This document shows, piece by piece, positions 519-64,000 of a stretch of DNA of 64,000 bases. The notes below the pieces were generated by a model, which was given only the letters and a program-made list of their open reading frames with translations, ran no database searches and was not told the DNA's origin. How positions within the stretch are numbered: the first letter of the stretch is position 1; every line of letters begins with the position of its first letter. The DNA is from an uncultured virus (IMG/VR IMGVR_UViG_3300042914_003776) (Duplodnaviria > Heunggongvirae > Uroviricota > Caudoviricetes), in the IMG/VR virus record IMGVR_UViG_3300042914_003776, positions 1-64,000 of that record; one strand, 5' to 3'. The position numbers and the translations under genes are program-made.

Positions 519-931
519 AGTCCAGTACTCCCAAATCCAGATTCGCCTCTATCAGTCTCTTCTAAAGATTCTACAGTTTCAAATTCATAAGTCAAGTATT
601 CCTGAAATAAAATTTGAGCAACTTTTGCTCCAGATTCTAGATATACATCTTGGTCTCCGGTATTATGCAGGATTACCTTAACTTCTCCTCTGTACGAGCT
701 ATCAATAACGCCCGCCAATACGTCTAGTCCAAAGTCTTTAGCATATCCGGAGCGGGGCCAAATTAGACCAACTACGCCCTCTGGAATCTCTAAAGATACT
801 CCGGTACTTACCGAAACTCTATCAAAAGCCGGAATCAAAACAGTTTCGCATGAAAACAGATCGTGCCCGGCATCGCCTAACTTTGGTGACTTTGGAGTTT
901 TTGCGTTTGGATTTAATAGTTTTACTTTCAT
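515..931 (-). CDS. dut: dUTP diphosphatase (trimeric dUTPase)
   Basis: Motifs AGHDL, PRSG, GVIDSSYRGE, KVAQ, RGESGFGSTG. Confidence 0.97.
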   Translation of the reverse strand: MKVKLLNPNAKTPKSPKLGDAGHDLFSCETVLIPAFDRVSVSTGVSLEIPEGVVGLIWPRSGYAKDFGLDVLAGVIDSSYRGEVKVILHNTGDQDVYLESGAKVAQILFQEYLTYEFETVESLEETDRGESGFGSTGL

Positions 932-1387
932 TTATCTTCCCTTTCTTCCTAAAATACAGCTATCGCATAAATAAGATGTTACCGAACCATCTCCCGCAAT
1001 AACTTTAATTTTGTTATTACAATTTTCGTTTGAACACTTCTTATAAGTCGGTTTATACTTGGGCCTATCCCTTGGTGACAATTTAATTTTTGGCGTTTGG
1101 TCTGCTTTAGACATTGCCTCTGTTTTATCATCAAAGAAAATATTTTTTCTATTTTTAATTTTATTTACCGGCACCTTAACTTTACCATCTACTTTTCTTT
1201 TCATAGTAAAATCGCCAGAATCTTTTGTAGAAGATACTTGTTTTTTAGGTGCCTTTTTTGTTTTTTTACTGACTGGCTCTACAGCTTCAGGCTCTTCCAG
1301 CAATTTATTAGCCAATTCTATCAGCTCTTCATCTTGAGTAGCTAAAGCCTTTTTTAATAGTTGTTTTACAATTTCTGTGTTTTTCAT
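932..1387 (-). CDS. hypothetical protein with C-terminal Cys cluster
   Basis: CSNENC...CDSC possible zinc finger; coupled to neighbours. Confidence 0.55.
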   Translation of the reverse strand: MKNTEIVKQLLKKALATQDEELIELANKLLEEPEAVEPVSKKTKKAPKKQVSSTKDSGDFTMKRKVDGKVKVPVNKIKNRKNIFFDDKTEAMSKADQTPKIKLSPRDRPKYKPTYKKCSNENCNNKIKVIAGDGSVTSYLCDSCILGRKGR

Positions 1388-1848
1388 TGCTTCCTCTTAG
1401 ATAGTTCTAACATAATATCGGACAATCTTTTAATATTTAATGCTTTATTTTCTAAAAGCTGAAATCTTAAAGACGCTTCATTCTTTAAATTATATAATTT
1501 TTCTGCTAATGGATTTTCTCTGATAGCTAGGTTGTACTTCTTTTCATACTTAACATAGTTATCGCCATAATTATCTATTGTTGGTGCCACGATATAGTTT
1601 ATACTATTTGTAGCGTAATCTATAATTGCTTTTAATCTATTTGATTCTTTATTTATATAATCTGCATAGCTACACAAAACAAAAGATGAAGTAATTAAAT
1701 CTTGAGAATTCATTTCTTTAATTTCTTCGTATGATAAGTTTATTACTTCTTCGCACTTATCATGATTAATTCTAGAAATATCTAATTTATTATCAGATAT
1801 CCAAGAATCAATTTTTTGCATAAAATCAATTACATCATCTGGATTCAA
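1384..1848 (-). CDS. helical protein, possibly UvsY-like recombination mediator
   Basis: 154 aa coiled-coil character, near RecA/UvsX; function inferred from context only. Confidence 0.35.
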   Translation of the reverse strand: MNPDDVIDFMQKIDSWISDNKLDISRINHDKCEEVINLSYEEIKEMNSQDLITSSFVLCSYADYINKESNRLKAIIDYATNSINYIVAPTIDNYGDNYVKYEKKYNLAIRENPLAEKLYNLKNEASLRFQLLENKALNIKRLSDIMLELSKRKQ

Positions 1849-2245
1849 TTTGCTGTCTCCATGTGTCTGGTTTATCTTTATGATTTAAAACAATTAGACT
1901 TATTTGATTTTGTTCACACCATCTAATTTTGTCACAATCTCTTTTTTTTGCTTTTAAAAAATTAAACTTCTGTTTGTAGAAAAAGCTGCTATAAGAATAA
2001 TGCTGTTCTCCATGAGCTTCTACCATTAAATTTCTATTTGGTATGTAAAAATCTACAGATAATTCTTTCTTGCCTTTCCAATCTCTGCTACCTATTAATT
2101 CTACTTCTTCCATAATTATATCAAACGGAAAAATTTCTTTTAGTAAAAGTTTTACATTTTGATGCAAGGAAGACTTATTATCTAAGGCACTAGAACCTCT
2201 AGGCTTCCAATCATATTCTTTTCCATCTAATCCTATGATTTTCAT
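1835..2245 (-). CDS. PD-(D/E)XK endonuclease (Vsr/DUF559-like)
   Basis: VDFYIP...MVEAHGEQHY...RDCDKIRWCEQNQISL; ATG 2245 overlaps the recA stop. Confidence 0.75.
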   Translation of the reverse strand: MKIIGLDGKEYDWKPRGSSALDNKSSLHQNVKLLLKEIFPFDIIMEEVELIGSRDWKGKKELSVDFYIPNRNLMVEAHGEQHYSYSSFFYKQKFNFLKAKKRDCDKIRWCEQNQISLIVLNHKDKPDTWRQQIESR

Positions 2246-3330
2246 AACATTAATTTGATTTCTTCCACTAATGCTTCGTATAGTCGTGGATTTTCTTTGA
2301 TAAAGAAATATGTTTTTTCCGCCCCCTGAAACTTGCATTTCTTGAGTGCTTCATCTGGCTCTTTATATGTATTATCAGAATTTAGCTCAATCTCTGGAAA
2401 AATACTTTTCAATAATTCTGGTTTGTTGTAAAGAAAAGAACATGTCATCCAAGCCACAGCCTGAGAAATAAGCCCAGCTTCTTGACCCATGATTAGAATT
2501 TCTTGCACCTTATCAACACCATATCCATAGCGTACCCAGCTTTGGCATTCTGCCCCCGGCGGGCCCATAGAAGAGCACAATACCTTCCAGTTAATCGCCT
2601 GACCGATTTGCTGGTCGTCTTGTAGCCAAGGCTGAATAGACTTAACTTCCATTCGCGTATCTGCCTGATATTGAATCTTAACACCACCATCGGCCATTCT
2701 AGCAGCACCATAGCCGCTTGTATTGGTAATCATGTGAGTAATCAAAATCATTAGAGATTTCTGATTTGGTACAATCTGTCCCATTTTCTTAGTAAAGTCC
2801 GAAAGTATTTTTGGTAAACCGGGCCTTGTCATTCCGTTGATTTCCTGCTCTAAGTCTCTTTGTGGAATTAAAGAAGAGACAGAGTCAATAATACAAACAC
2901 AGCCTTCATTTTCTTTTGCTGAAACTAGTTTGGCAGCTATATCTAAAAACTCTTCTGCACTTAGAGGCTTTTCTTCCGCCCTAATTACAGTTACTTTTGC
3001 TGGATCTAATTCGCTTATTTCAAAGTTCATTTCTTTTAATCGGCCCTCAACATCTAAATATATGATATGACGACCTTCTTTTTGACAATTTGCTGCAATT
3101 TGCATAGCAATTGTAGTTTTTCCAGACTTGCATGCTCCGCTCAACATAACCCAAGAGCCTTCTTTAATACCGCCGCTTAATGCTACGTCGATTACCGGGC
3201 TGACAGAAATAACCTTATAGTCTTTTCTTTTATCAAGTAGCTCTGTACCAGTTCTAATAACATCTCCATACTTTTTTGCAATTTCGGATAGTGTATTGCC
3301 TTCTGTTTTAGATACTTTAGTCTTCGCCAT
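2242..3330 (-). CDS. RecA/UvsX-like recombinase
   Basis: DVALSGGI, Walker A GACKSGKTT, YLDVEG, IIDSVSSL, GGVKIQYQADTRM. Confidence 0.92.
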   Translation of the reverse strand: MAKTKVSKTEGNTLSEIAKKYGDVIRTGTELLDKRKDYKVISVSPVIDVALSGGIKEGSWVMLSGACKSGKTTIAMQIAANCQKEGRHIIYLDVEGRLKEMNFEISELDPAKVTVIRAEEKPLSAEEFLDIAAKLVSAKENEGCVCIIDSVSSLIPQRDLEQEINGMTRPGLPKILSDFTKKMGQIVPNQKSLMILITHMITNTSGYGAARMADGGVKIQYQADTRMEVKSIQPWLQDDQQIGQAINWKVLCSSMGPPGAECQSWVRYGYGVDKVQEILIMGQEAGLISQAVAWMTCSFLYNKPELLKSIFPEIELNSDNTYKEPDEALKKCKFQGAEKTYFFIKENPRLYEALVEEIKLML

Positions 3331-3790
3331 TATTATTCTCCAAATTTTTAAATTTTGCAAACATACTTTTTTTCTTGCTGGCAAAAGATGCTCTCGGTTG
3401 TTGAGAAGTATCTATCTTTTCTTTTGCTTCGACTATACTAACCTTTTCTAGTTCTTCTCTATATGTAAAAGCAAAATCTTCAATCATTTTTTTTACGAAA
3501 TCTAGCGGGTGATAAAAGCCCAAAGAATATATCTTTTTGCCTTTTTCTGAATTAATAAAAGCTATTAAAACTTTATCTCCAAATTCTTCTATAAGTCTAT
3601 GCGCGGCAACGATTTGTGCCTGATATGATTTTTTTTGAGACTTGTTCCAAAATTTAAACGCTAGATTGCCTTTATTATCTTTTTCTGCTTTTCTAAGGCA
3701 CATAACCTCAGCAACATATTGTGCGGCATTACACATCACGCCTGTCGAGGGCGACTTGAATACTTTCTCTAGTTTTTTTTCTTGATCCAT
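3317..3790 (-). CDS. hypothetical protein
   Basis: 157 aa ORF in operon. Confidence 0.6.
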   Translation of the reverse strand: MDQEKKLEKVFKSPSTGVMCNAAQYVAEVMCLRKAEKDNKGNLAFKFWNKSQKKSYQAQIVAAHRLIEEFGDKVLIAFINSEKGKKIYSLGFYHPLDFVKKMIEDFAFTYREELEKVSIVEAKEKIDTSQQPRASFASKKKSMFAKFKNLENNNGED

Positions 3791-26833: not shown

Positions 26834-28096
26834 TTAAATAAGAATATCTTTAATTAATTTTCCATTATCAACAATTTCGATAGGTCTCGGGCCCGGGGCC
26901 AATAATTCTTTTTCTCCAACAATTCCTAATAAATGATACATCGTGTAAGCTAAATCTTCTGGGCTTGTTGGATTCATATCAGGGTCAGATGCAGTAGGAT
27001 CAGAAGAGCCATAAACCATTCCCTGCTTTATTCCGCCACCAGCAAGTAATACGCTAAAAACTTTTGGCCAATGATCGCGTCCAGCATCTTTGTTTACTTT
27101 TGGCGTTCTACCAAATTCGCTGGAGACCATTATCAATGTTTTACCTAGCATACCACGCTCCTCTAAATCTAATAGTAGAGTCGAAATAGCTTTATCTAAA
27201 GGAGGAAGTTGATTATTCATTCCGCCGGAGATGCCTGTGTGCATATCCCAGCCACCATATGTAACAGTCACCATTCTTACGCCAGCTTCAACTAGTCTTC
27301 TAGCTATTAGAAGTCTTTGACCCGCTTCATTTTTGCCATATCTTTCTTTAGTTTGATCATTTTCTAATTCTAGATTAAAAGCATCTCTTGCTTGAGCAGA
27401 ACTAATTAAATTATAAGCCTGTTCATAAAATTTGTCCATAGCCACGATTTTATCTGAATTGTGTTTAGATGAAAATTCTTTATTTAATAAATCAAGAGCC
27501 TCTCTTTTTTTGTTGAATCTATTAACTTCGTCTTGAGAATTTAAATCTAAAACTTTAAAATCCTTGCTTGCAGGATCGGAATTTAAGCTAAATGGCTTAT
27601 AAGAAGAGCTTAGATATCCATTATTAGCAAACTCATTTGGAGTATTTGGTACACAAACATATGGAGGCAAATTGTTTCTTGAGCCATATTCGTGACTAAT
27701 TACACTTCCGAAACTAGGATATGATAAAGCCGGGCTTGGCTTATACCCAGTAAACATATTATGGGTGCCTCGCTCATGAGCGGCTTCGCCGTGAGTCATT
27801 GACCTAATAAGAGTAAATTTGTCAGAAATATTAGCTAGCTGTGGCAATCGGCTTGAGAGTATATCGCCCGTTTTTGTTTTAATAACATTAACATCGCCCC
27901 TGTATTCTATTGGAGCAAATGGCTTAGGGTCAAAAGATTCTTGATGAGCTATTCCGCCCGGCAAAAAGATATGAATTACGCTTTCGGCTTTAGCTGGAAT
28001 AAAATCATATTTTTGTTGCTCTGATTTTAAATATAGTGCCTGAGCTAGATTAATACCGAAAAAACTACCAATCTGTAGAAAATTTCTTCTATACAT
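26834..28096 (-). CDS. DUF1501 domain protein
   Basis: Tat-like RRNFL, GGIAHQESFDPKP, ARRLVEAGVR, GWDMH, SEFGRTPKVN...GRDHWP. Confidence 0.92.
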   Translation of the reverse strand: MYRRNFLQIGSFFGINLAQALYLKSEQQKYDFIPAKAESVIHIFLPGGIAHQESFDPKPFAPIEYRGDVNVIKTKTGDILSSRLPQLANISDKFTLIRSMTHGEAAHERGTHNMFTGYKPSPALSYPSFGSVISHEYGSRNNLPPYVCVPNTPNEFANNGYLSSSYKPFSLNSDPASKDFKVLDLNSQDEVNRFNKKREALDLLNKEFSSKHNSDKIVAMDKFYEQAYNLISSAQARDAFNLELENDQTKERYGKNEAGQRLLIARRLVEAGVRMVTVTYGGWDMHTGISGGMNNQLPPLDKAISTLLLDLEERGMLGKTLIMVSSEFGRTPKVNKDAGRDHWPKVFSVLLAGGGIKQGMVYGSSDPTASDPDMNPTSPEDLAYTMYHLLGIVGEKELLAPGPRPIEIVDNGKLIKDILI

Positions 28097-28182
28097 AAAA
28101 GTCCTAATTAAAAGAGCTGTCTGCGGCTAATTCGCCCTTAATATCTTGGGCAAAACAAACTAATTATACTATAATAAATACA

Positions 28183-29403
28183 CTAATCAACTAATTCTGT
28201 GATTATTTTGCCACTATTTGCTATTTTCATAGGTCTTCCATCATTGGAAGTAAAATTTGTTTCTAGAGAAATATCAAGCGATTTAAGAACTGTCGCCATT
28301 ATATCTTGGGCAGAATAGGGTTCAGTGGCTACCGATGTTCCATCTTCGTTTGTAGAGCCGATTACTTGTCCGCCCTTAACTCCGCCGCCACCAAGCACTA
28401 CGCTCCAAGCTTTTGCATAGTGATCGCGTCCGGCATCGGTGTTAATGTTTGGAGTACGCCCAAACTCGCCCATCCACAAGATTGTGGTGTCTTGATAAAG
28501 ACCACGTTGATTTAAATCTTCTATTAAAGCACTCATGGCCTGATCCATGATTGGTAGCTTTTCTTCTAGTGTATTAAAAATATCCGCATGATTATCCCAG
28601 CCACCAAAATCTACCTCGATAAAAGGAGTACCGACTTCAACCAGACGGCGGGCCATCAAGCATCCTCGCCCAAAAGAATTATCGCCATATCTCTGTTTAA
28701 TTTTTTCTGGCTCTTTATCTATTTTGAATAGATTCATTTGATCGCTGGCAACAACTTTAACGGCACGGCCTAAAGTCTTTGAATGATCTTGAGGAAGAGA
28801 GCCTCTATTTTCTTTTATAAATCCTTTTTCTATAACCTCCAAAGCCCTTAGTCTCTGGATCATCCTTAATTCATCTACATTAAATTTTAAATCTCTAATA
28901 TTTCCATTTGAACCAACTACAAATGGAGAATAGCTAGCTCCTAAAAATCCCGGGCCAATACTGGCTCCTCCAATAGAAACAAATTGCGGTATTTCTAGTG
29001 CTGGATTATTTAACTGATTAGAAATTACAGAGCCATAACTTGGATGCTCCATAGTTGGAGAAGGTGCATATCCAGTATGTAAATAATATCTGCCCCTTGT
29101 ATGGTCGGCTTCTCTGGTGCTCATGCTTCTAACTATGCTTAGATTATGCATCTGTTTTGATAGAAGGGGCAAATGTTCGCAGATTTGAATGCCATCTGCC
29201 GATGTTGAAATAGGTTTAAACTTTCCTCCAGTCGGAGCATTTGGCTTCAAGTCCCATATGTCGATAGTGCTAGGCCCACCATTCATCCAAAGCAAAATAC
29301 ATGATTTATTTTTTTTCTTTATTTCATCCGCTTTTGCAAAAAGTCCAGAACCAACAAAACCAGAAGCCAAAATTAAATTATTTACAAATTCTCTTCTATT
29401 CAT
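28183..29403 (-). CDS. DUF1501 domain protein
   Basis: NRREF, GGPSTIDIWDLKP, ARRLVEVG, GWDNH, GEFGRTPNIN...GRDHY. Confidence 0.92.
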   Translation of the reverse strand: MNRREFVNNLILASGFVGSGLFAKADEIKKKNKSCILLWMNGGPSTIDIWDLKPNAPTGGKFKPISTSADGIQICEHLPLLSKQMHNLSIVRSMSTREADHTRGRYYLHTGYAPSPTMEHPSYGSVISNQLNNPALEIPQFVSIGGASIGPGFLGASYSPFVVGSNGNIRDLKFNVDELRMIQRLRALEVIEKGFIKENRGSLPQDHSKTLGRAVKVVASDQMNLFKIDKEPEKIKQRYGDNSFGRGCLMARRLVEVGTPFIEVDFGGWDNHADIFNTLEEKLPIMDQAMSALIEDLNQRGLYQDTTILWMGEFGRTPNINTDAGRDHYAKAWSVVLGGGGVKGGQVIGSTNEDGTSVATEPYSAQDIMATVLKSLDISLETNFTSNDGRPMKIANSGKIITELVD

Positions 29404-29875
29404 TTTTATTACCCTTGTTTTTTGTAGCATAACCCTTTTCGACCATAACATTTGATACATCGTCTAAAGAGCCATCTCCATCAACATCTTTATAAATATA
29501 TCCTAGTACTCTAGACATATTAACAGAATTTGAAATATTTCCATCAAAAGGCACTCTTACATGCACTTCATCATTTGGTTTTAATATTTTTTGTAAATAT
29601 TCTTTCGATTCTAATCCTCTGGCTTTTTCTTGCTGGTTTTTTGTTTTTATTTCAGGCGCCCAACAATCTACCATTCTTATATTTGCTCGGATTTTAAATT
29701 CTACTGTTACAGTATCTCCATCATAAACAGAAATTATTTTAGCCGGGGCATCAATAAATGTTTCTGTCTTAGAATAAGCTAATGTAAACCTTGTAGCTAC
29801 TACAAATAGCATAAACATAGCGCAATAACTAGAAATAATATTTAAGATTTGAGCAGCTACAAGTTTATATTTCAT
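29396..29875 (-). CDS. thermonuclease (SNase-like)
   Basis: VYDGDT, IRMVDCWAPE, RVLGYIY, MVEKGYA. Confidence 0.88.
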   Translation of the reverse strand: MKYKLVAAQILNIISSYCAMFMLFVVATRFTLAYSKTETFIDAPAKIISVYDGDTVTVEFKIRANIRMVDCWAPEIKTKNQQEKARGLESKEYLQKILKPNDEVHVRVPFDGNISNSVNMSRVLGYIYKDVDGDGSLDDVSNVMVEKGYATKNKGNKNE

Positions 29876-29877
29876 AT

Positions 29878-30858
29878 TTATTCCTCTTGAAAGATATCCG
29901 AGTTTGCCCGGGTCATTAGGGCTATAATATTTTGTCCGCTAGAAGTTTCCGATATAAAATGCACAGAGCCATCACATCTTAGGCTCATTATACCACCATT
30001 ATGAAAACTGTAAAGCTCACTATCGTTTGTACAATTCATGTTGCACTGTCCTACTATAGTAACAGCACCACTAGAAGAAGTGCCATTTTGTACGCCAATT
30101 TCGTTAGAACCATCTAAACTAAATCCATTGTTAATATCGGCCCAGCCCCATCCATCTCCAACAAAAGGCGTATTAAAAACTAAACCAGATTTTGGATTCT
30201 GTGATATTCTACTGCCTCTTCCATAGAAACTTGGTCTTCCGGAGCCCTCTGCCACAATTACTGTTTGGCTTGTTCCATCTAGAATCTGGCTCATTTTAAC
30301 GCCTTGAGGCCCTCTTGCAAGAGCACCAAAGACTTCTCTGGTATTTATTGATGGAAGCCCATTAGACACAAAGAATGAGTTTCTAACAGCATTCACGGAA
30401 CCATAATCGCTATAACCAAAAACCGGCTGACCATAAGTAATTCCTAAAGCAACATATAGGCTTTGAAAAGGAACTTCTCTGGTCGCTGGTGCTGTTGGGC
30501 ACAAATATGTAGGGATAGACTTAGTTGTAATTGGGGTATTTAAAGAATCAAACCAATTTACGCCATGATAATAATTGTTATATGCAGATGTTTGTTCAAT
30601 AAAAGGAAGAACCATTTTTTGCCAAGATTGCTGAAAAACCGGAGGCGAAACACTAATCCGGCTTGGCGGAAATAGTTTATATGTACTTTCGTAATTCAAT
30701 AAAGCTAATCCAATTTGCTTTAAGTTGTTGGAACATTGCATTCTGCGGGCTGCTTCTCTGGCTGCTTGAACTGCCGGAAGCAATAATCCCACTAAAACGC
30801 CAATAATTGCAATAACAACTAGAAGTTCAATCAATGTAAAACCATTCTTTTTTTTCAT
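29878..30858 (-). CDS. DUF1559 protein with prepilin-type N-terminal cleavage/methylation motif
   Basis: [47 protein letters not shown]...SFHNGG...DGSVHF. Confidence 0.95.
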
Positions 30859-35194: not shown

Positions 35195-35707
35195 CTAGAA
35201 AGTTTCAGAAGTCAAGATGTCAAAAGCTTGTAAAAATTCTTCTTTTGCGTTTTTTGAAAAAAATAACTTTTCAGAAGATTTTGTTCCCCACAAAACTTTT
35301 TTCTCAACTTTGAGAATCTTTCTGTCGTACTTCTTGATTATAGCATTATGTACTTGGAAGTCAAGGTTAAATTTTTTTTCTATTACAGAATTCATTCTAG
35401 ATTCTATATCCAAGTATTCTTTCAGGTGTTTTTTTAGAGGAGATACAATATCACCTAAATAAGCCTCGCTAGCATCATGCATTAACAGTGCAAACAATAC
35501 ATCCCTGCCCGATATTCCATCAAACATAGCCATTTGAACCATGCCCAAGCTATGCTCTGCCACGCTATAGTCTTGCGGTGACTGAGCCCCAAAACGAGAA
35601 ACTCTACTTAATCCATGAGCAATAGTTTGAATAGAAATCATTTCTTCAACAGGATTAATCAAATCAATTTTACTACCATCGCACAAAGTAATACAGCTTT
35701 CGTTCAT
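35195..35707 (-). CDS. HD-domain phosphohydrolase (YfbR-like nucleotidase)
   Basis: IAHGLS..RF, YSVAEHS, LMHDASEAYLGDIVSPLK. Confidence 0.88.
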   Translation of the reverse strand: MNESCITLCDGSKIDLINPVEEMISIQTIAHGLSRVSRFGAQSPQDYSVAEHSLGMVQMAMFDGISGRDVLFALLMHDASEAYLGDIVSPLKKHLKEYLDIESRMNSVIEKKFNLDFQVHNAIIKKYDRKILKVEKKVLWGTKSSEKLFFSKNAKEEFLQAFDILTSETF

Positions 35708-36765
35708 TTTGCACCTAAATATTCATGAGAGTAACAAGTTCTAACGGCATCTATTTCTTTTCTTTTATCTTCTTTTCTAATTTTATCACCTTTTGGAATA
35801 TATAAATAATCCTTTCTGGCTCGGCCATTTTTGCTAGTAGCTTTCCATAGTGGCGATCTATTTCTATACTCGCCCATTCTGGGGTGCGCGGTTTTAGAAA
35901 AATATCTATGTCCGCTATCAGTAAAAAGCTTTGCTATAAAATCAGAAAATCTAACGCCTATACCAAGCCCCTGATAATCTGGCAATACTACTGTTCTATG
36001 TTCTCTCCAAGCATTTTTAACCGTACCACTAGGATAAGCTAAAGCAGAACCAAAAGCAATAGGTTTAGTGTCATATAATCCCAAAAAACACCGGGCAGAT
36101 TTATTTATTTTATCGTCTAAATAATGATGGTGCCTAAAAACTTCCCACCACTCGGTTGTGCAAGAGTAGATTTCGAGTTGTATTTCTGGTCTACTCCGAA
36201 GAGACCTCCTTGAAGTCAAAACTCCTGTTTGTGTGTCAAAAATCCAGTCTGGTTGTAGCCATTCAATAATATCGTAATGACAGGTAGAAAAAACTACACC
36301 TGAAATATTATTTTGTCTAATATATCTTTGTGTGGCATGACAACTACTTTTGGCCACAGTACGATCAATAACACTGGTAAATTCATCTATTGATACATTG
36401 CTATCTAAAATTCTAGCAAGTCTTGCCCGGAATTGTTCTCCATTACTTAATACGTGAAAGGGTCTGCACCATGAAGGAACACTATTTAAACCAACAGCAG
36501 ACAGTTTTTGTTGCTCTACTTGGCTAACAATAGCAAGTTCCGGATTCCAATCGGGATCATTTGTGATGCCATAATAATGTTTTAATAGAGAGGTTTTACC
36601 GCTTCCGCTTGACCCTACAATGAGACCTATTGCCCAAGAATTATCTCTTTTAGGAGCATTAAAATCTGGCAGTTCAAATACGCTATTGCCGTTAAAATTA
36701 TAATCAAATGGTTGAATAGCATTTATTAAATTTTCGTCTAGTTTAACAGAGGTATATAGTTTCAT
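35704..36765 (-). CDS. ABC-type ATPase fused to a GNAT acetyltransferase
   Basis: GSSGSGKT, LSNGEQFRA, IDEFTS; C-terminal HHYL...RTVVLPDYQGLGIG. Confidence 0.85.
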   Translation of the reverse strand: MKLYTSVKLDENLINAIQPFDYNFNGNSVFELPDFNAPKRDNSWAIGLIVGSSGSGKTSLLKHYYGITNDPDWNPELAIVSQVEQQKLSAVGLNSVPSWCRPFHVLSNGEQFRARLARILDSNVSIDEFTSVIDRTVAKSSCHATQRYIRQNNISGVVFSTCHYDIIEWLQPDWIFDTQTGVLTSRRSLRSRPEIQLEIYSCTTEWWEVFRHHHYLDDKINKSARCFLGLYDTKPIAFGSALAYPSGTVKNAWREHRTVVLPDYQGLGIGVRFSDFIAKLFTDSGHRYFSKTAHPRMGEYRNRSPLWKATSKNGRARKDYLYIPKGDKIRKEDKRKEIDAVRTCYSHEYLGAK

Positions 36766-36887
36766 GATTATGTTTCGTCAAAAATTCCAACCAAAGATAT
36801 TCCCAGATTTGATTTCTGGTTTCTGTTCTTATTTGCCCCATGATTTTTGTAGAGACCTGTTTTCTATTTTGATAGCCTACTTGACTT

Positions 36888-37067
36888 CTAACTGTTTTCA
36901 TTTTCGTCTTTAAACTGATCCCAGACTTGGTCCCCGACTTGGTCCCCGACTTGGCTCCAGACTTGGTTCCTGACTTGGCTCTCGACTTGGTTACTGACTT
37001 GGTTCCAGACTTGTTTCGTGGTTTGGTTCCAGACTTGGCTCCTGACTTGGATCTTAACAGTTTTCAT
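36888..37067 (-). CDS. QVxx-repeat mini-protein
   Basis: MKTVKIQVRSQVWNQ...QVWDQFKDENENS. Confidence 0.7.
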   Translation of the reverse strand: MKTVKIQVRSQVWNQTTKQVWNQVSNQVESQVRNQVWSQVGDQVGDQVWDQFKDENENS

Positions 37068-37150
37068 TTCTTGCTCCTGACTTGGTTCCCGACTTGGTCC
37101 CAGACTTGGTCCCCGACTTGGCACCTGATTTCATATTGAATCGGCTTCAT
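37064..37150 (-). CDS. QVxx-repeat mini-protein (28 aa)
   Basis: [32 protein letters not shown]-coupled to the next gene. Confidence 0.5.
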   Translation of the reverse strand: MKPIQYEIRCQVGDQVWDQVGNQVRSKK

Positions 37151-43926: not shown

Positions 43927-44534
43927 AGTCTATCTCTGTTTTTTCAAATCATTGAAATAAATATATCTGAGAATTCTGTAAAAAATAGTACCCGATGCAT
44001 TACCGCAAACACCAACCCAAGTCTTGTCTATAGCTTTAATACCTATTTTTTTTCTAATTGCTGACTCAATTGTTGCACGAGTATTTAATTTATATATAAC
44101 TGATTTCATTTTCTTTTATCCAACTTTGTATTTGCGATTTAACCCAACCAATCTGGCTCATGGTTTTATCAATTCGTATATCAACATCGCCATTAATATT
44201 ATCCCAAGTTGCTTCGCAAGCCTGTTTGTCAACTTCATTTCTGATTTCGTATATTACTGATGTCATCTTTTATGTAGTCTTTAAATCTATAAAATAGTAA
44301 AGATGGGAAACTTATTTTTTTTATAAAAAGGCTCCAGATAGGATATGATATGTGGCGATGAACGTCAATACCCTGTACGACCTCTCTTTGGAGCTTTTCT
44401 CTAAGTTTCATTGTTCTTAGTCTTTAAAAAATCGTGAATAGCAATAAATGGCAATCTAAACATTATACGGCCATCATAGTCGATAGTCATCCCAAATTCC
44501 CAAACAATTTTTTCTAATTTAAAATTAACAGTTT

Positions 44535-44717
44535 TCATTTTTTGCTTACAACCTGACTCCTAATTCGATCTATGGCTTGTATCCAGACTTGGCTCCAGAC
44601 TTGGTCCCCGACTTGGCTCCAGATTTGGCTCCTGACTTGGATCAAGATTTGGTCCCCGACTTGGCTCCTGACTTGGTTCAAGATTTGGTTCCTGACTTGA
44701 TTTTTGACAATTTTCAT
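44535..44717 (-). CDS. QVxx-repeat mini-protein
   Basis: [16 protein letters not shown]...VVSKK. Confidence 0.75.
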
Positions 44718-44920
44718 TTTTCGTCCCAGACTTGCTCGCAGATTTGGTTCCTGACTTGGTTCCAGACTTGGTTCACGACTTGGTATCCGACTTGGCTCCC
44801 GACTTGGTTCCCGACTTGGTCCCAGACTTGGCTCCAGACTTGGTCCCCGACTTGGCTCCAGATTTGGCTCCTGACTTGGATCAAGACTTGGTCCATGATT
44901 TGATTCTTAGTTGTTTTCAT
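44714..44920 (-). CDS. QVxx-repeat mini-protein
   Basis: [12 protein letters not shown]...[10 protein letters not shown]. Confidence 0.75.
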
Positions 44921-45075
44921 TTCTTGCTCACGATTTGGCTCCCGACTTGGCTCCAGACTTGGCTCCTGACTTGGTTCAAGATTTGGTCCCCGACTTGGCT
45001 CCAGACTTGGCTCCAGACTTGGTATCCGACTTGGCTCACGACTTGGGCCCTGACTTGATTTTTGACAATTTTCAT
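44917..45075 (-). CDS. QVxx-repeat mini-protein (52 aa)
   Basis: [20 protein letters not shown]...QIVSKK. Confidence 0.72.
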
Positions 45076-45302
45076 TTTTCGTCCCAGACTTGCTCCCAGA
45101 TTTGGTTCCTGACTTGGTTCCAGACTTGGTTCACGACTTGGTATCCGACTTGGCTCACGACTTGGGCCCTGATTTGATTCCAGACTTGGTTACTGATTTG
45201 GTTCCTGACTTGGCTCACGACTTGGCTCACGACTTGGTTACTGACTTGGTTCCAGACTTGATTCATAGCTCGATGCCTGACTTGACTGCTGACAGCTTTC
45301 AT
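45072..45302 (-). CDS. QVxx-repeat mini-protein
   Basis: [19 protein letters not shown]...[10 protein letters not shown]. Confidence 0.75.
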
Positions 45303-45481
45303 TTTTCGTCCCAGACTTGGCTCCTGACTTGGAACCTGACTTGGCTCCTGACTTGGTCCCAGACTTGGCTCCTGACTTGGTCCCAGACTTGGTTCCCGAC
45401 TTGGTTCCAGACTTGGTTCCCGACTTGGTTCCTGACTTTGCTCAAGGCTTGGCTCCAGACTTGGTAAATAAGTGATTTCAT
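45299..45481 (-). CDS. QVxx-repeat mini-protein
   Basis: [16 protein letters not shown]...[14 protein letters not shown]. Confidence 0.75.
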
Positions 45482-45648
45482 TTTTCGTGCCTGACTTGCT
45501 TCCAGACTTGGTTCCCGACTTGGTTACTGACTTGGTTCAAGAATTGGTTCCCGACTTGGATCATGACTTGGTATCCGACTTGGCTCACGACTTGGGCCCT
45601 GACTTGATTCATAGCTCGATGCCTGACTTGACTGCTGACAGCTTTCAT
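45478..45648 (-). CDS. QVxx-repeat mini-protein (56 aa)
   Basis: [19 protein letters not shown]...[10 protein letters not shown]. Confidence 0.72.
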
Positions 45649-45851
45649 TTTTCGTCCCAGACTTGGCTCCTGACTTGGAACCTGACTTGGCTCCTGACTT
45701 GGTCCCAGACTTGGCTCCTGACTTGGTTCCCGACTTGGTTCCAGACTTGGTTCCTGAGTTGGTTCAAGAATTGGTTCCCGACTTGGATCATGACTTGGTA
45801 TCCGACTTGGCTCACGACTTGGGCCCTGACTTGATTGTTGACAGCTTTCAT
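45645..45851 (-). CDS. QVxx-repeat mini-protein
   Basis: [15 protein letters not shown]...[14 protein letters not shown]. Confidence 0.75.
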
Positions 45852-46054
45852 TTTTCGTCCCAGACTTGGCTCCTGACTTGGAACCTGACTTGGCTCCTGA
45901 CTTGGTCCCAGACTTGGCTCCTGACTTGGAACCTGACTTGGCTCCTGACTTGGTCCCAGACTTGGCTCCTGACTTGGTCCCAGACTTGGTTCCAGACTTG
46001 GTTCCCGACTTGGTTCCAGACTTGGTTCCTGACTTGATTGTTGACAGCTTTCAT
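45848..46054 (-). CDS. QVxx-repeat mini-protein
   Basis: [15 protein letters not shown]...[14 protein letters not shown]. Confidence 0.75.
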
Positions 46055-46233
46055 TTTTCGTCCTTGACTTGCTCCCAGATTTGGTTCCTGACTTGGTTCC
46101 AGACTTGGTTCACGACTTGGTATCCGACTTGGCTCACGACTTGGGCCCTGATTTGATTCCAGACTTGATTCCATAGCTGATCCAAGACTTGACTCTCGAC
46201 TTGGTTCCTGACTTGGTTATTAACTGGTTTCAT
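46051..46233 (-). CDS. QVxx-repeat mini-protein
   Basis: [15 protein letters not shown]...[10 protein letters not shown]. Confidence 0.75.
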
Positions 46234-46400
46234 TTTTCCTCCAAGATTTGGTCCCTGACTTGATCCTTGACATGGTTCCTGACTTGGTTCCTGACTTGGC
46301 TCCAGACTTGGTCCCCGACTTGGTTCCTGACTTGGCTCCAGACTTGACTATTGACTTTGTCCCTGACTTGCTCCCAGACTTGCTTTTTAACTGTCTTCAT
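46230..46400 (-). CDS. QVxx-repeat mini-protein
   Basis: [11 protein letters not shown]...QILEEK. Confidence 0.75.
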
Positions 46401-46952
46401 TTCCCAACTCTTCAATAAACTTCTCGTACTCAAGCCAAAACTGTTCTATCGCCCACTCTTTAGGCCCGGCGTAAACTTTTAGCAGTCTATATGGCACCTT
46501 AGAGAAAACGCTATATCTTGTTAATCCGTCTTCAAATCTTATGCCTATTTTTGCATCATCTCTTATAAAAAACAAGTCGTTTTCAAATATTTTTAACATT
46601 TTCTTCTACATCACTTTTTAGGCAGCGTAGTATTCTAATACTAAAAGGTCTGGTAACAGCAAAGGTTACATCTAATACTTTTACTTTATAATTACCAAGA
46701 TATTTATAATAAATTGTCTTAGTATTGGTTTCTCTCAGAATATCGATAGATTTCATCACATATATCTCTATAAATCTCAAATTTAAACTCGGAATTGTGG
46801 GTAATCCACTTACCAACGAAGCCGAAGGAAGTAAAAATCAAATTGATCGACGAAATCAAATTGATAAAAAACTCATTTGATGTTTTATTCATCTGTCTAG
46901 ATATTCTTTGTGTGACTGGGTTCATTTAAAGCCTGTGTCCTACGCATAAAAC

Positions 46953-48371: not shown

Positions 48372-49076
48372 TTATATATTATATACTATTGATCTTTATT
48401 TTCAAGCAAAATACTGTAAAATTCTTCTACCATAATATGTATTCTGTATAACTTTGAGCTTGTGCATTTTTTATTGTTAACTTTATAAGATATAATTCCC
48501 ACATTAATTCCCAAATAGCACCATTATGTGCTTTTAAAAAATAATCAACTTTTATGTTATTTATGTCTTCTATTTTTTCCCTAAATGATATCAAGATGGT
48601 CACTCCAGCCCGAATAAAACCAACAATTAAAGTTTATTTTATCTTCTATATAATCTGACAGACCCCTCTTCTTAGTAAAGATCATGTCGGGCATTAATTT
48701 AAAATGGCTAATTTTTTTCATATTTTAACTACTACAGATAATAACAAAACAGTAATGTGGTATAAAAAATCATTTCTATAATATAGCCCGGGAAATTTAG
48801 GCTTGCCCATGAATGATCTGGGTCTGGATATGTTGTTATAAGGTCACGAACTGATTTCATTTTTTTTGTTTCTTTTTTATTACCCACCGTATCTCAAATA
48901 ACAAATCATCGATCCATTTTATATATAAAGAAAATGTATGCGGTCTGTAATTTCATAGCGAATAAAATTAGGAATCCGTAAATACCAGTCTATATAAGTA
49001 TATGTAAATATGTGCGTTTTGTCAAATATTTTTTCGTTTATTAAATCATAAGTTTTTTGAATTTTTTTTAAAGGCT

Positions 49077-49235
49077 TCATTTTTCTGCTCCGTGTTCATC
49101 CCAGACTTGTCTCACGACTTGGTTACTGACTTGGTTCCAGACTTGGCTTTCGACTTGGCTCCCGACTTGGCTCCTGACTTGGTTCCTGACTTGGCTCCAG
49201 ACTTGCTCCCCGACTTGATTGTTGACAGCTTTCAT
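49077..49235 (-). CDS. QVxx-repeat mini-protein (52 aa)
   Basis: [15 protein letters not shown]...[10 protein letters not shown]. Confidence 0.72.
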
Positions 49236-49438
49236 TTTTCGTTCCAGAATTGGTTCCCGACTTGGATCATGACTTGGTTCAAGACTTGGTTCCTGACTTG
49301 GCTCCAGACTTGGCTCCTGACTTGGTTACTGACTTGGTCCCCGACTTGGTTACTGACTTGGTTCCCGACTTGGTTCCTGACTTGGTTCCTGACTTTGCTC
49401 AAGGCTTGGCTCCAGACTTGGTAAATAAGTGATTTCAT
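49232..49438 (-). CDS. QVxx-repeat mini-protein
   Basis: [16 protein letters not shown]...[14 protein letters not shown]. Confidence 0.75.
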
Positions 49439-49509
49439 TTTTCGTGCCTGACCTGCTTCCAGACTTGGCTCCAGACTTGGTTCCTGACTTGATTGTTGAC
49501 AGCTTTCAT
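49435..49509 (-). CDS. QVxx-repeat mini-protein (24 aa)
   Basis: [24 protein letters not shown]. Confidence 0.65.
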   Translation of the reverse strand: MKAVNNQVRNQVWSQVWKQVRHEK

Positions 49510-49625
49510 TTATCACTCCAGAATTGGTTCCCGACTTGGATCATGACTTGGTTCCTGACTTGGCTCCAGACTTGATTACTGACTTTCCAGACTTGGTTAC
49601 TGACTTGACTGCTAAGAGCTTTCAT
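49506..49625 (-). CDS. QVxx-repeat mini-protein (39 aa)
   Basis: MKALSSQVSNQVWKVSNQV...QFWSDK. Confidence 0.65.
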   Translation of the reverse strand: MKALSSQVSNQVWKVSNQVWSQVRNQVMIQVGNQFWSDK

Positions 49626-49810
49626 TTTTTATTCTTATATTGGTGCAAGACTTGGATATATGCTTCCGTCCAGACTTGGTGCCGAAGTGTGTAGGTTTGA
49701 TTTATATGATTGTACATTTTGCTCCAGATTCGGACACTTATTCGTTCACCAATTTTGTAATTAGTTAATTTTATAATTTTGTACTGTAGTTCAGTTATAA
49801 CATTTTTCAT
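49622..49810 (-). CDS. diverged member of the mini-gene family
   Basis: MKNV start, residual RHQVWTEAYIQV, same ATGA coupling. Confidence 0.55.
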   Translation of the reverse strand: MKNVITELQYKIIKLTNYKIGERISVRIWSKMYNHINQTYTLRHQVWTEAYIQVLHQYKNKK

Positions 49811-50073
49811 TTATTATCCCCATAATATTCTTCTATAAAACCCAAGTTTTCTTCTATAAAACGCAAAATAATATATCCCGGCATATCGTGTGATACATGC
49901 CAACGGGTTTCCCAATAGCTTTTTAGTATTAATTGACGGATTTCTTTAGCTATTTTCATTGTTTAAAATAAGCCTTATTTTACTTATTGGATGACAAATT
50001 TTACGAATTTTTTGAAATATAACAAGATTAATTGACGGGACATATAATTGTATAAGTTTATTTTTTAGAGGTT

Positions 50074-50280
50074 TCATTTTTCGTTCCTGCTTTGTTCCCA
50101 AGCTTGGCTCCAGACTTGGCTCCTGACTTGGCTCCCGACTTGGATCATGACTTGGTTCAAGACTTGGTTCCTGACTTGGCTCCAGACTTGGCTCCTGACT
50201 TGGTCCCCGACTTGGTTACTGACTTGGCTCCCGACTTGGCTCCAGACTTGCTCCCCGACTTGATTGTTGACAGCTTTCAT
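50074..50280 (-). CDS. QVxx-repeat mini-protein
   Basis: [15 protein letters not shown]...[10 protein letters not shown]. Confidence 0.75.
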
Positions 50281-50396
50281 TTTTCGTTCCAGAATTGGTT
50301 CCCGACTTGGATCATGACTTGGCTCCCGACTTGGTTCCAGACTTGGTCCACTTGGTTCATGACTTGGTTCACGATTTGACTCTTAACTGATTTCAT
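50277..50396 (-). CDS. QVxx-repeat mini-protein (39 aa)
   Basis: [22 protein letters not shown]...QFWNEK. Confidence 0.68.
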
Positions 50397-51521
50397 TAGC
50401 TCTAAAACTTATCTCTATAAAATGTATATCAGTATTATATAGCTTTCTACAGCCGGATTGCCGGTAAAAAGAGGAAAAAAGTCTATATTTTGGCCCGGGC
50501 ATTATGTCCATATTGTACATTCTAAAATGTTCAGATAAACTCTTCATAAACATGCTCTTTTAATAAATCGTATCCAAGCGGAGGGTGTGTAACAATTATT
50601 CCTGCCTTTATTTCTGTTGATTCGGGTATAAAGTTCCTAAATAAAAAACTATTTCTGCCCAAAGAAACGGCACAATAATATGTTATTAATTCTGTAACAG
50701 GATTCATATTTCATCCCTTAATATAAATTTTAATAATATACTAAAATCAGTCCTGTAATATAGTAGATCATGTATTTTACGAAATTCACAATAACTTCTT
50801 CCAGTTGACACTTCTCTAATTGATATCGTGGTGCTGAATTTACAAGATTTCATATATTATATTCCAATTGATTATATCTATTTTAGGATAAAAAATTTGA
50901 TTTATATTATCCCTTAAATGCTCTCTAGAGGTTTTATTGTAGGTTTTTGCCCATATCCCATATATTATCCTATCCTGCACGATAACTCTAACACTATTCA
51001 TTATTTGACCTGTTCTTTTATCATCTTTCTTAAAGTAAATAATATATCATCAAGCCACACTACATAAGACACACAACAAATATCTATTTTTTGTTTATAA
51101 TTTAATTTTGGAAATATTTTTTCTTTTAATGTTCTAATTTTTTCTCCCTTTTTCTTTAAAACAGGGCCCGGCTTTCTAGGTTTTCTTTCGTAAAAACTTC
51201 CGTATCTTATGCCATAGATTCTGTAGATTATATATCTATTGTAGTACAGATAGTATCAAAAGGCAAGCTCAATAGAGAAAGAAAGATGAGTTGTTTTTAG
51301 GCTATATAAGATAGCTTATGATTTGACGTAAGTCCTTTAGTACCAATACTATATAATAAAACAGTAATATAGAATATAGTATATAAGAATGAAGTATATA
51401 ATAGAGAGTAATAGAAAAGAATATAGAAGGAAATAAAGAACAAAGAACAACAGTGAAGAATAATATTTATGATAAATTTAAACGTCCTCGGTCGGCAGCA
51501 AGTCGCCTGCCAAAATGGCAG

Positions 51522-55227: not shown

Positions 55228-55275
55228 CCCCCCAACAGAGGGGACCCGGCCGGCCCGGCCCCCCCATTCGGGGGA
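55228..55275. repeat. GC-rich twin-hairpin element, copy 1
   Basis: CCCCCC-N-GAGGGG + CCCGGCCGGCCCGG + CCCCCC-N4-GGGGG. Confidence 0.9.
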
Positions 55276-55384
55276 GCCCCTCTCGGGGCTCCTCCTTTTG
55301 GGCTACCGTTCATTTCTGCCAGCTAGTACACCGATGATAAACAAAACAGCAATGAACAAAAATACATGTACACTGCCATCTTGA

Positions 55385-56666: not shown

Positions 56667-56737
56667 TAAATATCGGCAAAGTCAAGGGGCGGGCTTTAAA
56701 AAAAGAAAAAATATTTTATGACCCCCCAGAAGAAGAT

Positions 56738-56785
56738 CCCCCAAAAGAGGGGGCCGGGCCGGCCGGGCCCACCCCAAAGTAGGGT
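56738..56785. repeat. GC-rich twin-hairpin element, copy 2 (core inverted)
   Basis: Core reads CCGGGCCGGCCGGG, the reverse complement of the other copies. Confidence 0.88.
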
Positions 56786-58787: not shown

Positions 58788-58836
58788 CCCCACTTTAGAG
58801 GGGGCCCGGCCGGCCCGGTCCCCCCTTTCGGGGGGA
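58788..58836. repeat. GC-rich twin-hairpin element, copy 3
   Basis: Same architecture as copy 1. Confidence 0.9.
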
Positions 58837-59898: not shown

Positions 59899-59924
59899 AA
59901 TATACCTTTCTAAAGTAAAAAAGC

Positions 59925-60106: not shown

Positions 60107-60127
60107 GTGTTGTTCTTCTATTATACA

Positions 60128-60972: not shown

Positions 60973-61021
60973 CCCCCCGAAAGAGGGGGCCCGGCCGGCC
61001 CGGCTCCCCCCGTTAGAGGGG
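60973..61021. repeat. GC-rich twin-hairpin element, copy 4
   Basis: Same architecture as copy 1. Confidence 0.9.
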
Positions 61022-61623: not shown

Positions 61624-61815
61624 TTATAATAAACCAAATAAATCTCGTCTGCGTCCATTTTATACCCTGACTTATCGCCTGTCAAGAGGTCATTTACTGG
61701 AAAAAACTCATCGCCAAAAGAAAAGTTTTCGTCAGCCGCAAGAACTTCTACTTCTTGTCTTAGTTGCTCGGGTGAAAGCCTCTTAAGCTTTTCTAATAAT
61801 TCTTTATAGGTCATG

Positions 61816-62205
61816 TCATTTCTTTTCTCCAATTAGATATACAACTTTACCATTCTCAGAATCATCAAGTTCAACATTGAAGTGTAAACTGTATTCTTTT
61901 TCATACCTTGCTTTAAGTTTTTGAAGTGCCTCAATGGCTTCATCAATACTATTACACTCAAAAATATCCCAAAGATCTATGTGTTTAATCAGCCTATCTT
62001 CCATTACTTTCTCCTTACGAGGCTTTCGCCCCGCTCCTTCGCGTTTTCCGCCGTGGGTCATGTACAATCTCCGCCTTTCGTCTACTGAACGAGTTATCAC
62101 CGCTATGATGCTGTTGCCCTCGCATGAGTCACAAATTGAAGTGTTGTGTGAATACAACAATGAACCGCATTTCCTACAATTTTTCATATTCGACACTCGC
62201 TGCAT
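61816..62205 (-). CDS. hypothetical protein with HGGKREGAGRKP motif
   Basis: CxxC N-terminus, basic GGxRxGAGRKP motif. Confidence 0.5.
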   Translation of the reverse strand: MQRVSNMKNCRKCGSLLYSHNTSICDSCEGNSIIAVITRSVDERRRLYMTHGGKREGAGRKPRKEKVMEDRLIKHIDLWDIFECNSIDEAIEALQKLKARYEKEYSLHFNVELDDSENGKVVYLIGEKK

Positions 62206-62587
62206 TCTCTTGGCTCTGATAATTCAACAATGTGCCACTCTGTATCGTCGTCCTCGCAATAAAGCAGGGCCGAATCGTGGTCAATAAATGGGCCAACAAA
62301 ACTTAATCCGTCTACAAAATTACCATAAACAATTACAAACATATTATTTTCCCTTTCTCAAAGCCCTTACAGTAAGTCTTAAACTAATCATTGCTAGCTC
62401 TGGACTTGGCCCTTGACCGTGACAATTAGCAAACTCGCCACCTAATAAAGTAGCAACATATAAACCGTTCCAGTGACTAAATTGAATGTGTGCCTTGATA
62501 TCCATTGCTTTCTCCTTTACGATGATTATACACTATACATCGTCACTGTCAAGGCCCGGAGTTTAATAAAAGATATATTTTTCTTTA

Positions 62588-62637
62588 CCCCCACAAAAGA
62601 GGGGGCCCGGCCGGCCCGGCGCCCCCCGTTAGAGGGG
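62588..62637. repeat. GC-rich twin-hairpin element, copy 5
   Basis: Same architecture as copy 1. Confidence 0.9.
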
Positions 62638-62648
62638 CTACCTTTTAG

Positions 62649-62855
62649 CTAGTTCTTGGCAACGATCTTTTTGAGGCTCAGCGTTCGATAGCCACCGTTT
62701 GCACAATCGACGGTGATATACTTGCCATTAGGGCCGATACCCCTCTTTTCAACTACTCCACTGATAGAACGCAAGATATTGCGATTACCATGCAAAGGAT
62801 AAAAAACATCGACCACGCTACCAACTTTAGCACCGATAGCCTTAAAAGAAACCAT
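62649..62855 (-). CDS. small SH3/WYL-like beta protein
   Basis: VFYP...RSISGVVEK...YITV...GYRTLSLKKI. Confidence 0.45.
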   Translation of the reverse strand: MVSFKAIGAKVGSVVDVFYPLHGNRNILRSISGVVEKRGIGPNGKYITVDCANGGYRTLSLKKIVAKN

Positions 62856-63205
62856 ATAAAATCCTTAAAAATAATAAATTTTAAACAAAGGATGCGACAG
62901 CTACATCTCTGCAACTGTCGCACCCCCACACAAAGAAAAACTACGCTTCTTTAGTCGCAAACTTTTCAGCCTGATCTTTTCGGTAACGCTCTTGACGCTC
63001 AACAAGGGCTTTAATTAGAGAGTCTAGGCCAGACGCTCCAACCTTAACGGAAACCTCGTTATTCTCGCTGTCACGAAATTCGATTGAATCGTAATTCCAA
63101 CCAATATAGGTCGTAGAAGCATCAAACGAAACCGACTGTTTAACCTTGAGCATTTTAGCTCTCCTAACAAAGAAATGAAACTTACACTCTAATTATACCG
63201 GGCGA

Positions 63206-63475
63206 TCAATGATTGTCAAATTTCAGACCGTTAATTTCAAAATACTTTTCGCAATCATTCTTGGAGTCAATCAAGCTCTTTCCGGTGCGTTCCTTATAAA
63301 GTTTAACACACGCAAGCTTACCACGATGCTGACCCTCATACTGTTCTTCAACAGTCAAATAAATAGAATGAGCGGTCACTTCACAAAGCTTAATAATTAA
63401 CTTTGCTACGTGAGAATCCAAGAAAGGGGCAGACTTTGCCGCATTCAATAAATGTCGGATGGCTTCAGTATTCAT
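63206..63475 (-). CDS. protein with ribosomal L7/L12 C-terminal-like motif
   Basis: KLACVKLYKERTGKSLIDSKNDCE resembles KIxxIKxxRxxTGxxLKEAKxxVE. Confidence 0.55.
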   Translation of the reverse strand: MNTEAIRHLLNAAKSAPFLDSHVAKLIIKLCEVTAHSIYLTVEEQYEGQHRGKLACVKLYKERTGKSLIDSKNDCEKYFEINGLKFDNH

Positions 63476-63494
63476 TCGTTTTCTCCTTTTCCTT

Positions 63495-63522
63495 ATTATA
63501 CATTATCGACAGAGGTTGTCAA
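63495..63522 (-). promoter_or_regulatory. sigma70-type early promoter
   Basis: TTGACA-ACCTCTGTCGATAATG-TATAAT. Confidence 0.85.
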
Positions 63523-64000
63523 GTTCTTTAGTAAAAATCTTACAAGTTCTTTCGGCCCGGCTTGCCCTAATTAATAGGGGGAAAACTAATCTTTTCCAAA
63601 ATAATCTATGCTATCGTTATTGTGCGTTAACCCCTGCTTGGTCAATTCTCCAACAACATCGATAATCCCTTGATCTCGGTAAAGTCTTACCAAATAATCC
63701 ATACAAAATTGCTTCCATTCGTCAACACTTATTTCCCCGGATAGAAACAATCTTCGAACGTCGTCATAACTTGACCTATCATTCCATTTCATTTCAATTC
63801 CCCTTTGTGCTAATAATCGTACTGACCGTGATCCCAGTCATCGCCGCCCATGTAATCCTGCCATTCCGTATATTCGTCCGGCTGGCCGTCGTCGTAGTTC
63901 TCGTTGGCTTCCTCGTCGCCCCAAAACTGGGCCATTTCCTCGGCGGTCAACTCTGGGCCATTGAATTCATCGCACTGAGACTTTTCAAAACTAGACATTT

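Follow-up and report, generated by a model that had tools for sequence, protein, structure and literature searches.

The hexamer GCCCGG (CCGGGC on the opposite strand) is strongly over-represented in the DNA of an uncultured tailed phage, IMG/VR record IMGVR_UViG_3300042914_003776, and this excess is confirmed as real rather than an artefact. The stretch analysed here (the window) covers the opening 64 kb of the virus record, which is 117,750 bp long; the missing 40.6 kb of the phage were taken from G001, a record of identical sequence that is complete at 158,520 bp and carries end repeats. The source is likely a large lake virus of planctomycete bacteria, with the host assigned from marker genes. 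The excess is independent of protein, reading frame, strand, and region, is shared with sister lineages in which individual sites turn over, is absent from host-type genomes, and includes tandem fixation of the word in early cassettes. We tentatively favor the view that GCCCGG acts, much as Chi does, as a double-strand signal for the phage's own recombination or end processing, one that is under weak selection or promotes itself.

The window contains 40 GCCCGG and 33 CCGGGC sites, 73 altogether, of which 9 lie inside five twin-hairpin cassettes and 64 elsewhere. This bears out an earlier sequence-only reading, which had counted more than 40 sites outside the repeat elements and named 11 example positions, all of which fall 0–3 bases from a site; the over-representation it reported against a zero-order model is also real, although the expectation is 4.5–4.8 rather than about 3. 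The whole 158-kb phage, treated as a circle, has 196 sites distributed 101:95 between the strands, corresponding to a density of ~1.2 per kb, and record G000 has 162 (85 + 77) compared to 21 expected from a Markov model of order 1. When the 12-nt QV repeats are masked, GCCCGG/CCGGGC is the top hexamer pair of the window at Markov orders 1–3 (73 versus 7.4, 14.2, and 26.7), but not at order 4. Two secondary words are enriched genome-wide, TCGCCC (78 versus 26) and GCCGTA (70 versus 31).

Coding constraints do not explain the excess, which persists after synonymous shuffling within genes (122 sites in 98 open reading frames (ORFs) versus 16.5 expected, with a maximum of 27 in 200 shuffles). All six frames are occupied (16/19/19 and 32/19/17 sites, where the null averages 1.5–4.6), and an artefact of Pro-Gly or Ala-Arg codon pairs, the pitfall that the sequence-only reading had singled out, was dropped because these pairs are not over-used (83 versus 100 and 125 versus 109 expected, respectively) and the excess outlives the codon shuffle. 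A stricter null is needed since CCWGG (W is A or T) is absent from the phage (0 versus ~131 expected in G000), which pushes Pro-Gly and like pairs to CCSGG (S is C or G). Forbidding CCWGG in the codon null (40 samples, 135 ORFs) lifts the expectation from 14 to 38 ± 5 (maximum 48), as compared with 154 sites observed, making the excess 4-fold over this null and ~10-fold over the plain one. The 154 sites fill 657 protein-permitted positions to nearly a quarter, including 41 of the 83 Pro-Gly pairs, and non-coding DNA holds 25 sites where about 1 is expected, mostly in cassettes and promoters. Many palindromic hexamers, for example, CAGCTG, CTGCAG, CCATGG, and AGGCCT, are absent or nearly so from the phage.

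The sites are evenly and irregularly scattered. The fill rate is 17–30% across nine regions (p = 0.45), the order of forward (F) and reverse (R) orientations around the circle is random (FF 47, RR 45, RF 45, FR 42), and sense and antisense sites are equally frequent in both gene arms. A KOPS (FtsK-orienting polar sequence) or other polar replication signal therefore fails, as the sites have no strand polarity. At the short-range scales covered, no regular spacing is found against a null of permitted positions, under which earlier hints (short gaps, 0.02 versus 0.16 in 0–52 kb; an early-region coefficient of variation of 0.63, p 0.02) are gone.

The preferred form is GCCCGGC (57 versus 6.2), which is half of the near-palindrome GCC-S-GGC. 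Other GCCCGGN words are enriched ~3-fold, with weaker grades for CCCCGG (~2-fold) and for GCCC elsewhere (1.5-fold). Outside the sites, related words are at null level (CCGG 216 versus 229, GGCC 240 versus 237, and CCSGG likewise), the reversed word GCCGGG is barely raised (27 versus 21), and A-CCCGG and T-CCCGG are halved (17 versus 32 and 17 versus 35). Five transition neighbors of GCCCGG are not drained (129 versus 121), contrary to what Vsr products would give, while the sixth, GCCTGG, is uninformative since every CCWGG is absent. The idea that sites are merely spared after G was ruled out, because CCGG and GGCC are at null level and 8 of the 36 CCCGGG words lack an overlapping site.

Sister lineages at 81–84% nucleotide identity share the excess (16 versus 1.3 and 6 versus 0.8), and the 80-kb record of the sister phage G307 has 59 sites against 6.9 under the plain and 19.7 under the stricter null. 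A 67-kb codon alignment of the phage with G307 contains 75 and 64 sites, 24 of them common. Both proteins permit a site at 203 places, filled in 53 and 45 cases, with 24 shared versus 14.4 if independent (four-fold sites: 0.43 identity versus 0.30 random); about half of the sites have thus been gained or lost separately, with density kept. Inside sites, transitions (67 versus 112) and transversions (86 versus 121) are both reduced, and gains arise from transition and transversion neighbors alike. The clade as a whole, represented by 25 overlapping loci, has 364 sites versus 37.7. Further away, in other family members, 301 loci (many redundant, 247 without CCWGG) have 487 versus 268 with the plain null, and 18 of these, distant and free of CCWGG, lack an excess under the stricter one (36 versus 48); the complete distant relative G308 fills just 19 of 604 permitted positions; and none of 15 other DUF1501-bearing viral loci has an excess. 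The distant phage L376, on the other hand, prefers the pentamer GCCCG (38 versus 10.2, in six frames). Its first 9.4 kb (L376:1-9379) contain GCCCG 42 times over both strands and no GCGC, a tetramer that is bimodal across the family loci L346-L425, being near zero in some lineages and 1.5–3-fold enriched in others (2.97 in L383). In G308 (L431-L438), CCGCGA occurs 65 times versus 24 expected and is densest in the early region.

The host comparisons use planctomycete genomes of the likely host type as stand-ins. The pointers to a planctomycete are a pair of DUF1501 genes and one DUF1559 prepilin-type gene, whose best genome matches are in Pirellula/Pirellulaceae (67–71%). Of 80 planctomycete loci, 63 were long enough to test, and none exceeds 1.45x. 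Five Pirellulaceae-type genomes have 0.2–0.3 sites per kb, below the reversed-word control and about a quarter of the phage density. In 400 kb of one G312 contig, the word is depleted (120 versus 197.5, or 0.6x) and shows no polarity (69:51 versus 102:96); a pooled polarity test of 23 host-type loci gave no consistent sign, with the positive control itself silent. Among 301 Planctomycetota genomes, some had a high ratio of GCCCGG to the control, which GGCC avoidance in the control accounts for; 17 loci from 14 such genomes range from 0 to 1.7x. RecC is found in 0 of 5 genomes. One Pirellulaceae-type genome has an AddAB-like gene pair, and its AddA-like protein turned up in 7 of the 81 family genomes searched, which are incomplete. 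In G312 (L442-L461), AGGGCA/GGGCA favors the G-rich strand (90 versus 31); it is a candidate FtsK-orienting word of Pirellulaceae, which we take to be KOPS-like.

A link to methylation, also raised by the sequence-only reading, is not supported on the phage side. No C5 or N4/N6 methyltransferase was found in the complete genome (no match to PF00145 or PF01555 in G001), Pfam scans of 137 + 42 phage proteins gave no DNA methyltransferase, none was found in the G307 record, and CCGG and CCSGG outside GCCCGG are at null level. A weak Vsr match is below cut-off, and the protein matches HNH/homing endonuclease families and is homing-endonuclease-like. Nor does the phage have a match to a Gam-type inhibitor or end-protector family. 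Beside the exonuclease gene lies a gene for a 165-residue nuclease (L085:16491-16985, minus strand; L376 homologue, 66%), which has no sequence match in the PDB. Its predicted fold (predicted local distance difference test score, pLDDT, 86) resembles NhoI/Eco15I and DpnI (Foldseek E 1e-5, TM 0.46; structural alignment with Z 8.8 and root-mean-square deviation 4.8 over 130 aligned residues), a family described as modification-dependent enzymes in PMC11347163; the protein is possibly a methylcytosine-dependent cutter of host DNA. As a reader of GCCCGG, a role that its presence in L376 had suggested, it was rejected, since it is present also in lineages without enrichment and so does not track the word. 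All 29 loci with this nuclease (BisI/NhoI/DpnI-like fold) lack CCWGG, versus 38 of 50 loci without it, the loci being redundant. The exonuclease and primase of L376 are no closer to those of this phage than are those of unenriched kin, and there is no obvious DNA binder among the clade-restricted genes.

The sequence-only reading rightly placed the hexamer at the core of twin-hairpin elements, where the GCCCGGC form makes up an invariant tandem. Seven such GC-rich cassettes at 55–65 kb sit just upstream of sigma70-type early promoters (Table 1); their 14-base core, two sites nine bases apart, is invariant in all seven, whereas stems and loops are variable. In six of 32 sigma70-type promoters, a site lies within the -35/-10 region or adjoins it. 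The core is in no other record among 479 loci, a set without the early region of the sister, and exact matches in two other viral contig records are unrelated chance matches. Distant kin have cassettes at similar places, built from a different inverted repeat and a variable GC-only patch, occasionally with GCCCGG; in G308 and several other kin, cassettes made of a GC-only patch and an inverted repeat precede the early promoters. Early sigma70-type promoters (window 52–64 kb and beyond) also share a conserved word in the spacer ahead of the -10 box, which recurs in G308.

Table 1. Positions of GCCCGG sites, cassettes, promoters, and marker genes (window coordinates unless G000 is given).
Feature	Position	Strand	Remarks
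Dispersed GCCCGG (+, 40) / CCGGGC (-, 33) sites	865..63560	both	n = 73; preferred form GCCCGGC
Twin-hairpin cassette 1	55228..55276		one full site; core CCCGGCCGGCCCGG; upstream of minus-strand sigma70-type promoter
Twin-hairpin cassette 2	56737..56785		two sites; inverted relative to other cassettes
Twin-hairpin cassette 3	58788..58836		two sites
Twin-hairpin cassette 4	60973..61021		two sites; on minus strand followed by T-run and promoter
Twin-hairpin cassette 5	62589..62637		two sites
Two further cassettes	G000 64.1 and 65.1 kb		same type
Palindromic cassette variant	G000 68.0 kb		one half flipped
Sigma70-type early promoter	62525..62559	-	site (62554) abuts -35 box
Sigma70-type early promoter	63192..63220	-	site (63198) within -35/-10 spacer
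RecA homologue (phage)	2242..3384	-	predicted member of recombination set; potential user of the word
Two DUF1501 genes and DUF1559 prepilin-type gene	26834..30858	-	putative planctomycete-host markers

A 4- to 10-fold excess at synonymous sites without amino-acid cost, polarity, or spacing indicates a weak, additive, and position-free force, which, if it is selection, would have a scaled strength of ~1.4–2.3 per site. Since this force hits all substitution types and is absent from host-type chromosomes, a phage-side reader fits better than host repair. We infer that a protein encoded by the phage reads the word, in a step of recombination or end protection. Such a protein would recognize GCCCGG, and best GCCCGGC, on double-stranded phage DNA, and an end-processing nuclease or RecA-loading step of the phage recombination set would stop or engage there. 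DNA ends arising anywhere would then meet a site within 1–2 kb from either side, site-bearing alleles would win in crosses, and either weak, additive selection or gene conversion through which the site promotes itself could uphold the density of ~1.2 per kb. We rank this Chi-like role first because it explains both orientations, the turnover, the lineage variants, and the tandem copies at module borders. It is favored also by the RecA, SSB, and exonuclease that the phage encodes, with no recognisable inhibitor; the phage has in addition DnaE, DnaG, DnaB, and two sigma-like proteins. Apart from RecA, the recombination set (SSB, PD-(D/E)XK exonuclease, DnaB, DnaG, DnaE) is encoded beyond the window. 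A precedent exists (Bobay, Touchon and Rocha 2013, PMC3784561): in phages that encode a recombinase and lack a RecBCD inhibitor, Chi is over-represented, with a median observed/expected ratio of 2.5–3.1.

Of the ideas in the sequence-only reading, that of an iterated signal survives as a double-strand signal, present on both strands, in all frames, in non-coding DNA, in cassettes, and in sisters, but not as highly iterated palindrome 1 (HIP1) nor, in the host-type genomes tested, as host Chi; that of a phage-protein binding site survives insofar as a phage-side reader is the most likely option. Several observations count against a Chi-like phage signal. No gene tested tracks the word as a reader would. 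Conservation in place is the same for the sites as for other CCSGG hexamers (34.5% versus 34%, compared to 14% for other all-GC hexamers), and the sharing with the sister is only 24 versus 14.4 under independence, which a repair ratchet would give too. To our knowledge, moreover, the Chi readers known so far are host RecBCD and AddAB, not phage enzymes. With equal caution, we suggest that this family of planctomycete phages may bear lineage-specific identity words (GCCCGG in the present clade, GCCCG in L376, perhaps GCGC-type words in other lineages), read by a phage enzyme, free of methylation, and not shared with the host, which would amount to a Chi-like or self-marking system of the phage's own.

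A doubtful alternative is that the phage encodes a DNA-binding protein specific for this sequence, which would coat its chromosome or mark it (self versus host, organisation, or early-promoter control), with the cassettes as strong tandem sites. The invariant cassette core together with the half-flipped variant is what GCC-S-GGC half-sites predict, and the graded preference (GCCCGGC over other GCCCGGN over CCCCGG), the sites at 6 of 32 promoters, and the ~4-fold density relative to Pirellulaceae-type genomes all agree with it. However, spacing is irregular, the lineage-restricted genes hold no candidate binder, and the core is confined to this phage in the 479-locus set, to which the sister's early region does not belong.

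We consider a neutral ratchet an unlikely cause; here the site would arise and persist through methylation-directed or very-short-patch repair, and such a ratchet has been modelled for cyanobacterial HIPs (PMC4390886). The lack of amino-acid cost, spacing, and position-specific conservation, the drained W-CCCGG words, and the near-palindromic best form are all compatible with it. No methyltransferase was found in the phage, however, and a repair system of the host should also raise the word in host DNA, yet the host-type genomes show 0.6x or values near 1x. The undrained transition neighbors, the unenriched GCCGGG outside sites, and the sub-threshold Vsr match, whose protein matches HNH/homing endonuclease families, likewise argue against repair.

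Selection for a preferred priming site of the phage DnaG (template GCCC plus a cryptic G/GG), rare in AT-rich DNA and maintained at Okazaki-fragment density, is improbable. The phage does have its own DnaG, DnaB, and DnaE, there is one site per ~1.6 kb per strand, and the graded S-CCC-GG preference and the L376 pentamer are compatible with the primer logic of T7-type primases. Yet neither arm shows strand asymmetry, spacing is uneven, tandem fixation in cassettes is left unexplained, and the L376 primase is only 38% identical.

Similarly improbable is that GCCCGG is the true Chi of an enzyme of AddAB type in the host; an AT-rich phage would have to enrich such a word, whereas a GC-rich host could do without enrichment. 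The phage precedent cited above (PMC3784561) and the AddAB-like pair of one Pirellulaceae-type genome speak for this. Against it stand RecC in 0 of 5 genomes, the AddA-like protein in only 7 of 81 incomplete genomes, and G312, where the word is depleted and unpolarised while the KOPS-like word is polarised; as far as host-type genomes allow testing, membership in host Chi is not supported.

Finally, a mere by-product of restriction-site avoidance, with CCWGG, GGWCC, and GCWGC replaced by S-centered forms, is very improbable and largely refuted: GGACC (51/87) and GGCCC (206/92) move as it predicts and the missing CCWGG does raise the null, but the remaining excess (154 against a maximum of 48), the 18 CCWGG-free distant loci under the same null, and the 19 of 604 positions filled in G308, against 154 of 657 here, rule out CCWGG compensation as the sole cause.

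Other features of the window include 22 tRNA genes spanning 22830-54068, most of them clustered at 39–43 kb, and arrays of a 12-nt unit (36845-37144, 44500-46450, and 49050-50400) that encode many small QV-W/R-D/N repeat proteins, with a DUF6745 gene nearby. A predicted ABC-ATPase fused to a GNAT domain (35704-36765, minus strand) may be a nucleic-acid modifier. Four HNH/GIY-YIG/DUF559 endonuclease genes (L085:11959-12843; G000 39.9, 69.5, and 70.6 kb; 2.8 kb in total) contain no GCCCGG. An alternative genetic code is not needed for reading the phage genes.

Virulent phages are known to purge short words, and this phage purges many restriction sites yet gains GCCCGG. Known word gains copy a host signal (Chi) or accompany a methylase (HIP1). 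A word that depends on neither host nor methylase would, if true, point to a way of reading sequence during phage recombination, replication, or self-recognition that has yet to be described. We found no paper on GCCCGG as a phage motif, and nothing on planctomycete phage words or primase-site excess, in a literature coverage that excludes most subscription journals. A 158-kb genome with few candidate enzymes makes the role of iterated words directly testable.

Among known systems, the PeSL cassettes of T4-type phages repeat a stem-loop and a strong sigma70 promoter between small early genes. The cassettes described here do the same, but their core repeats in tandem a word that occurs throughout the genome, and distant kin use another inverted repeat. 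Cyanophage S-B43 has a GpC-linked cytosine modification pattern (PMC12783734) that spares sites after G, with a similar G-before-C context rule on CC-containing words; here, in contrast, GCCWGG is missing as well, CCSGG away from the word stays at its null level, and gains of the word exceed every null by far. HIPs are palindromes of cyanobacterial chromosomes with a cognate methyltransferase and a reported periodicity (PMC4390886 and PMC5861425). Like HIP1 and alternate HIPs, GCCCGG is GC-rich, occurs roughly 1,000 times per Mb, strongly and in all frames, has no peptide or RNA role, and is swapped for other words between lineages. Unlike them, it is asymmetric (only the best 7-mer is near-palindromic), viral, methylase-free, and irregularly spaced at the scales tested; it is not a HIP1, because it is no palindrome, has no cognate methylase in the phage, and shows no host-type excess. 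With Chi in inhibitor-free phages (PMC3784561), it shares being a short, GC-rich, non-palindromic word in a phage with a recombinase and no recognisable inhibitor. There, however, the word is the host's own Chi, whereas here it is a new word with an observed/expected ratio of 4–10, with no excess in the host-type genomes tested and no polarity in 400 kb of one of them. In pattern, GCCCGG resembles both HIP1 and Chi, while being a member of neither, for Chi as far as tested.

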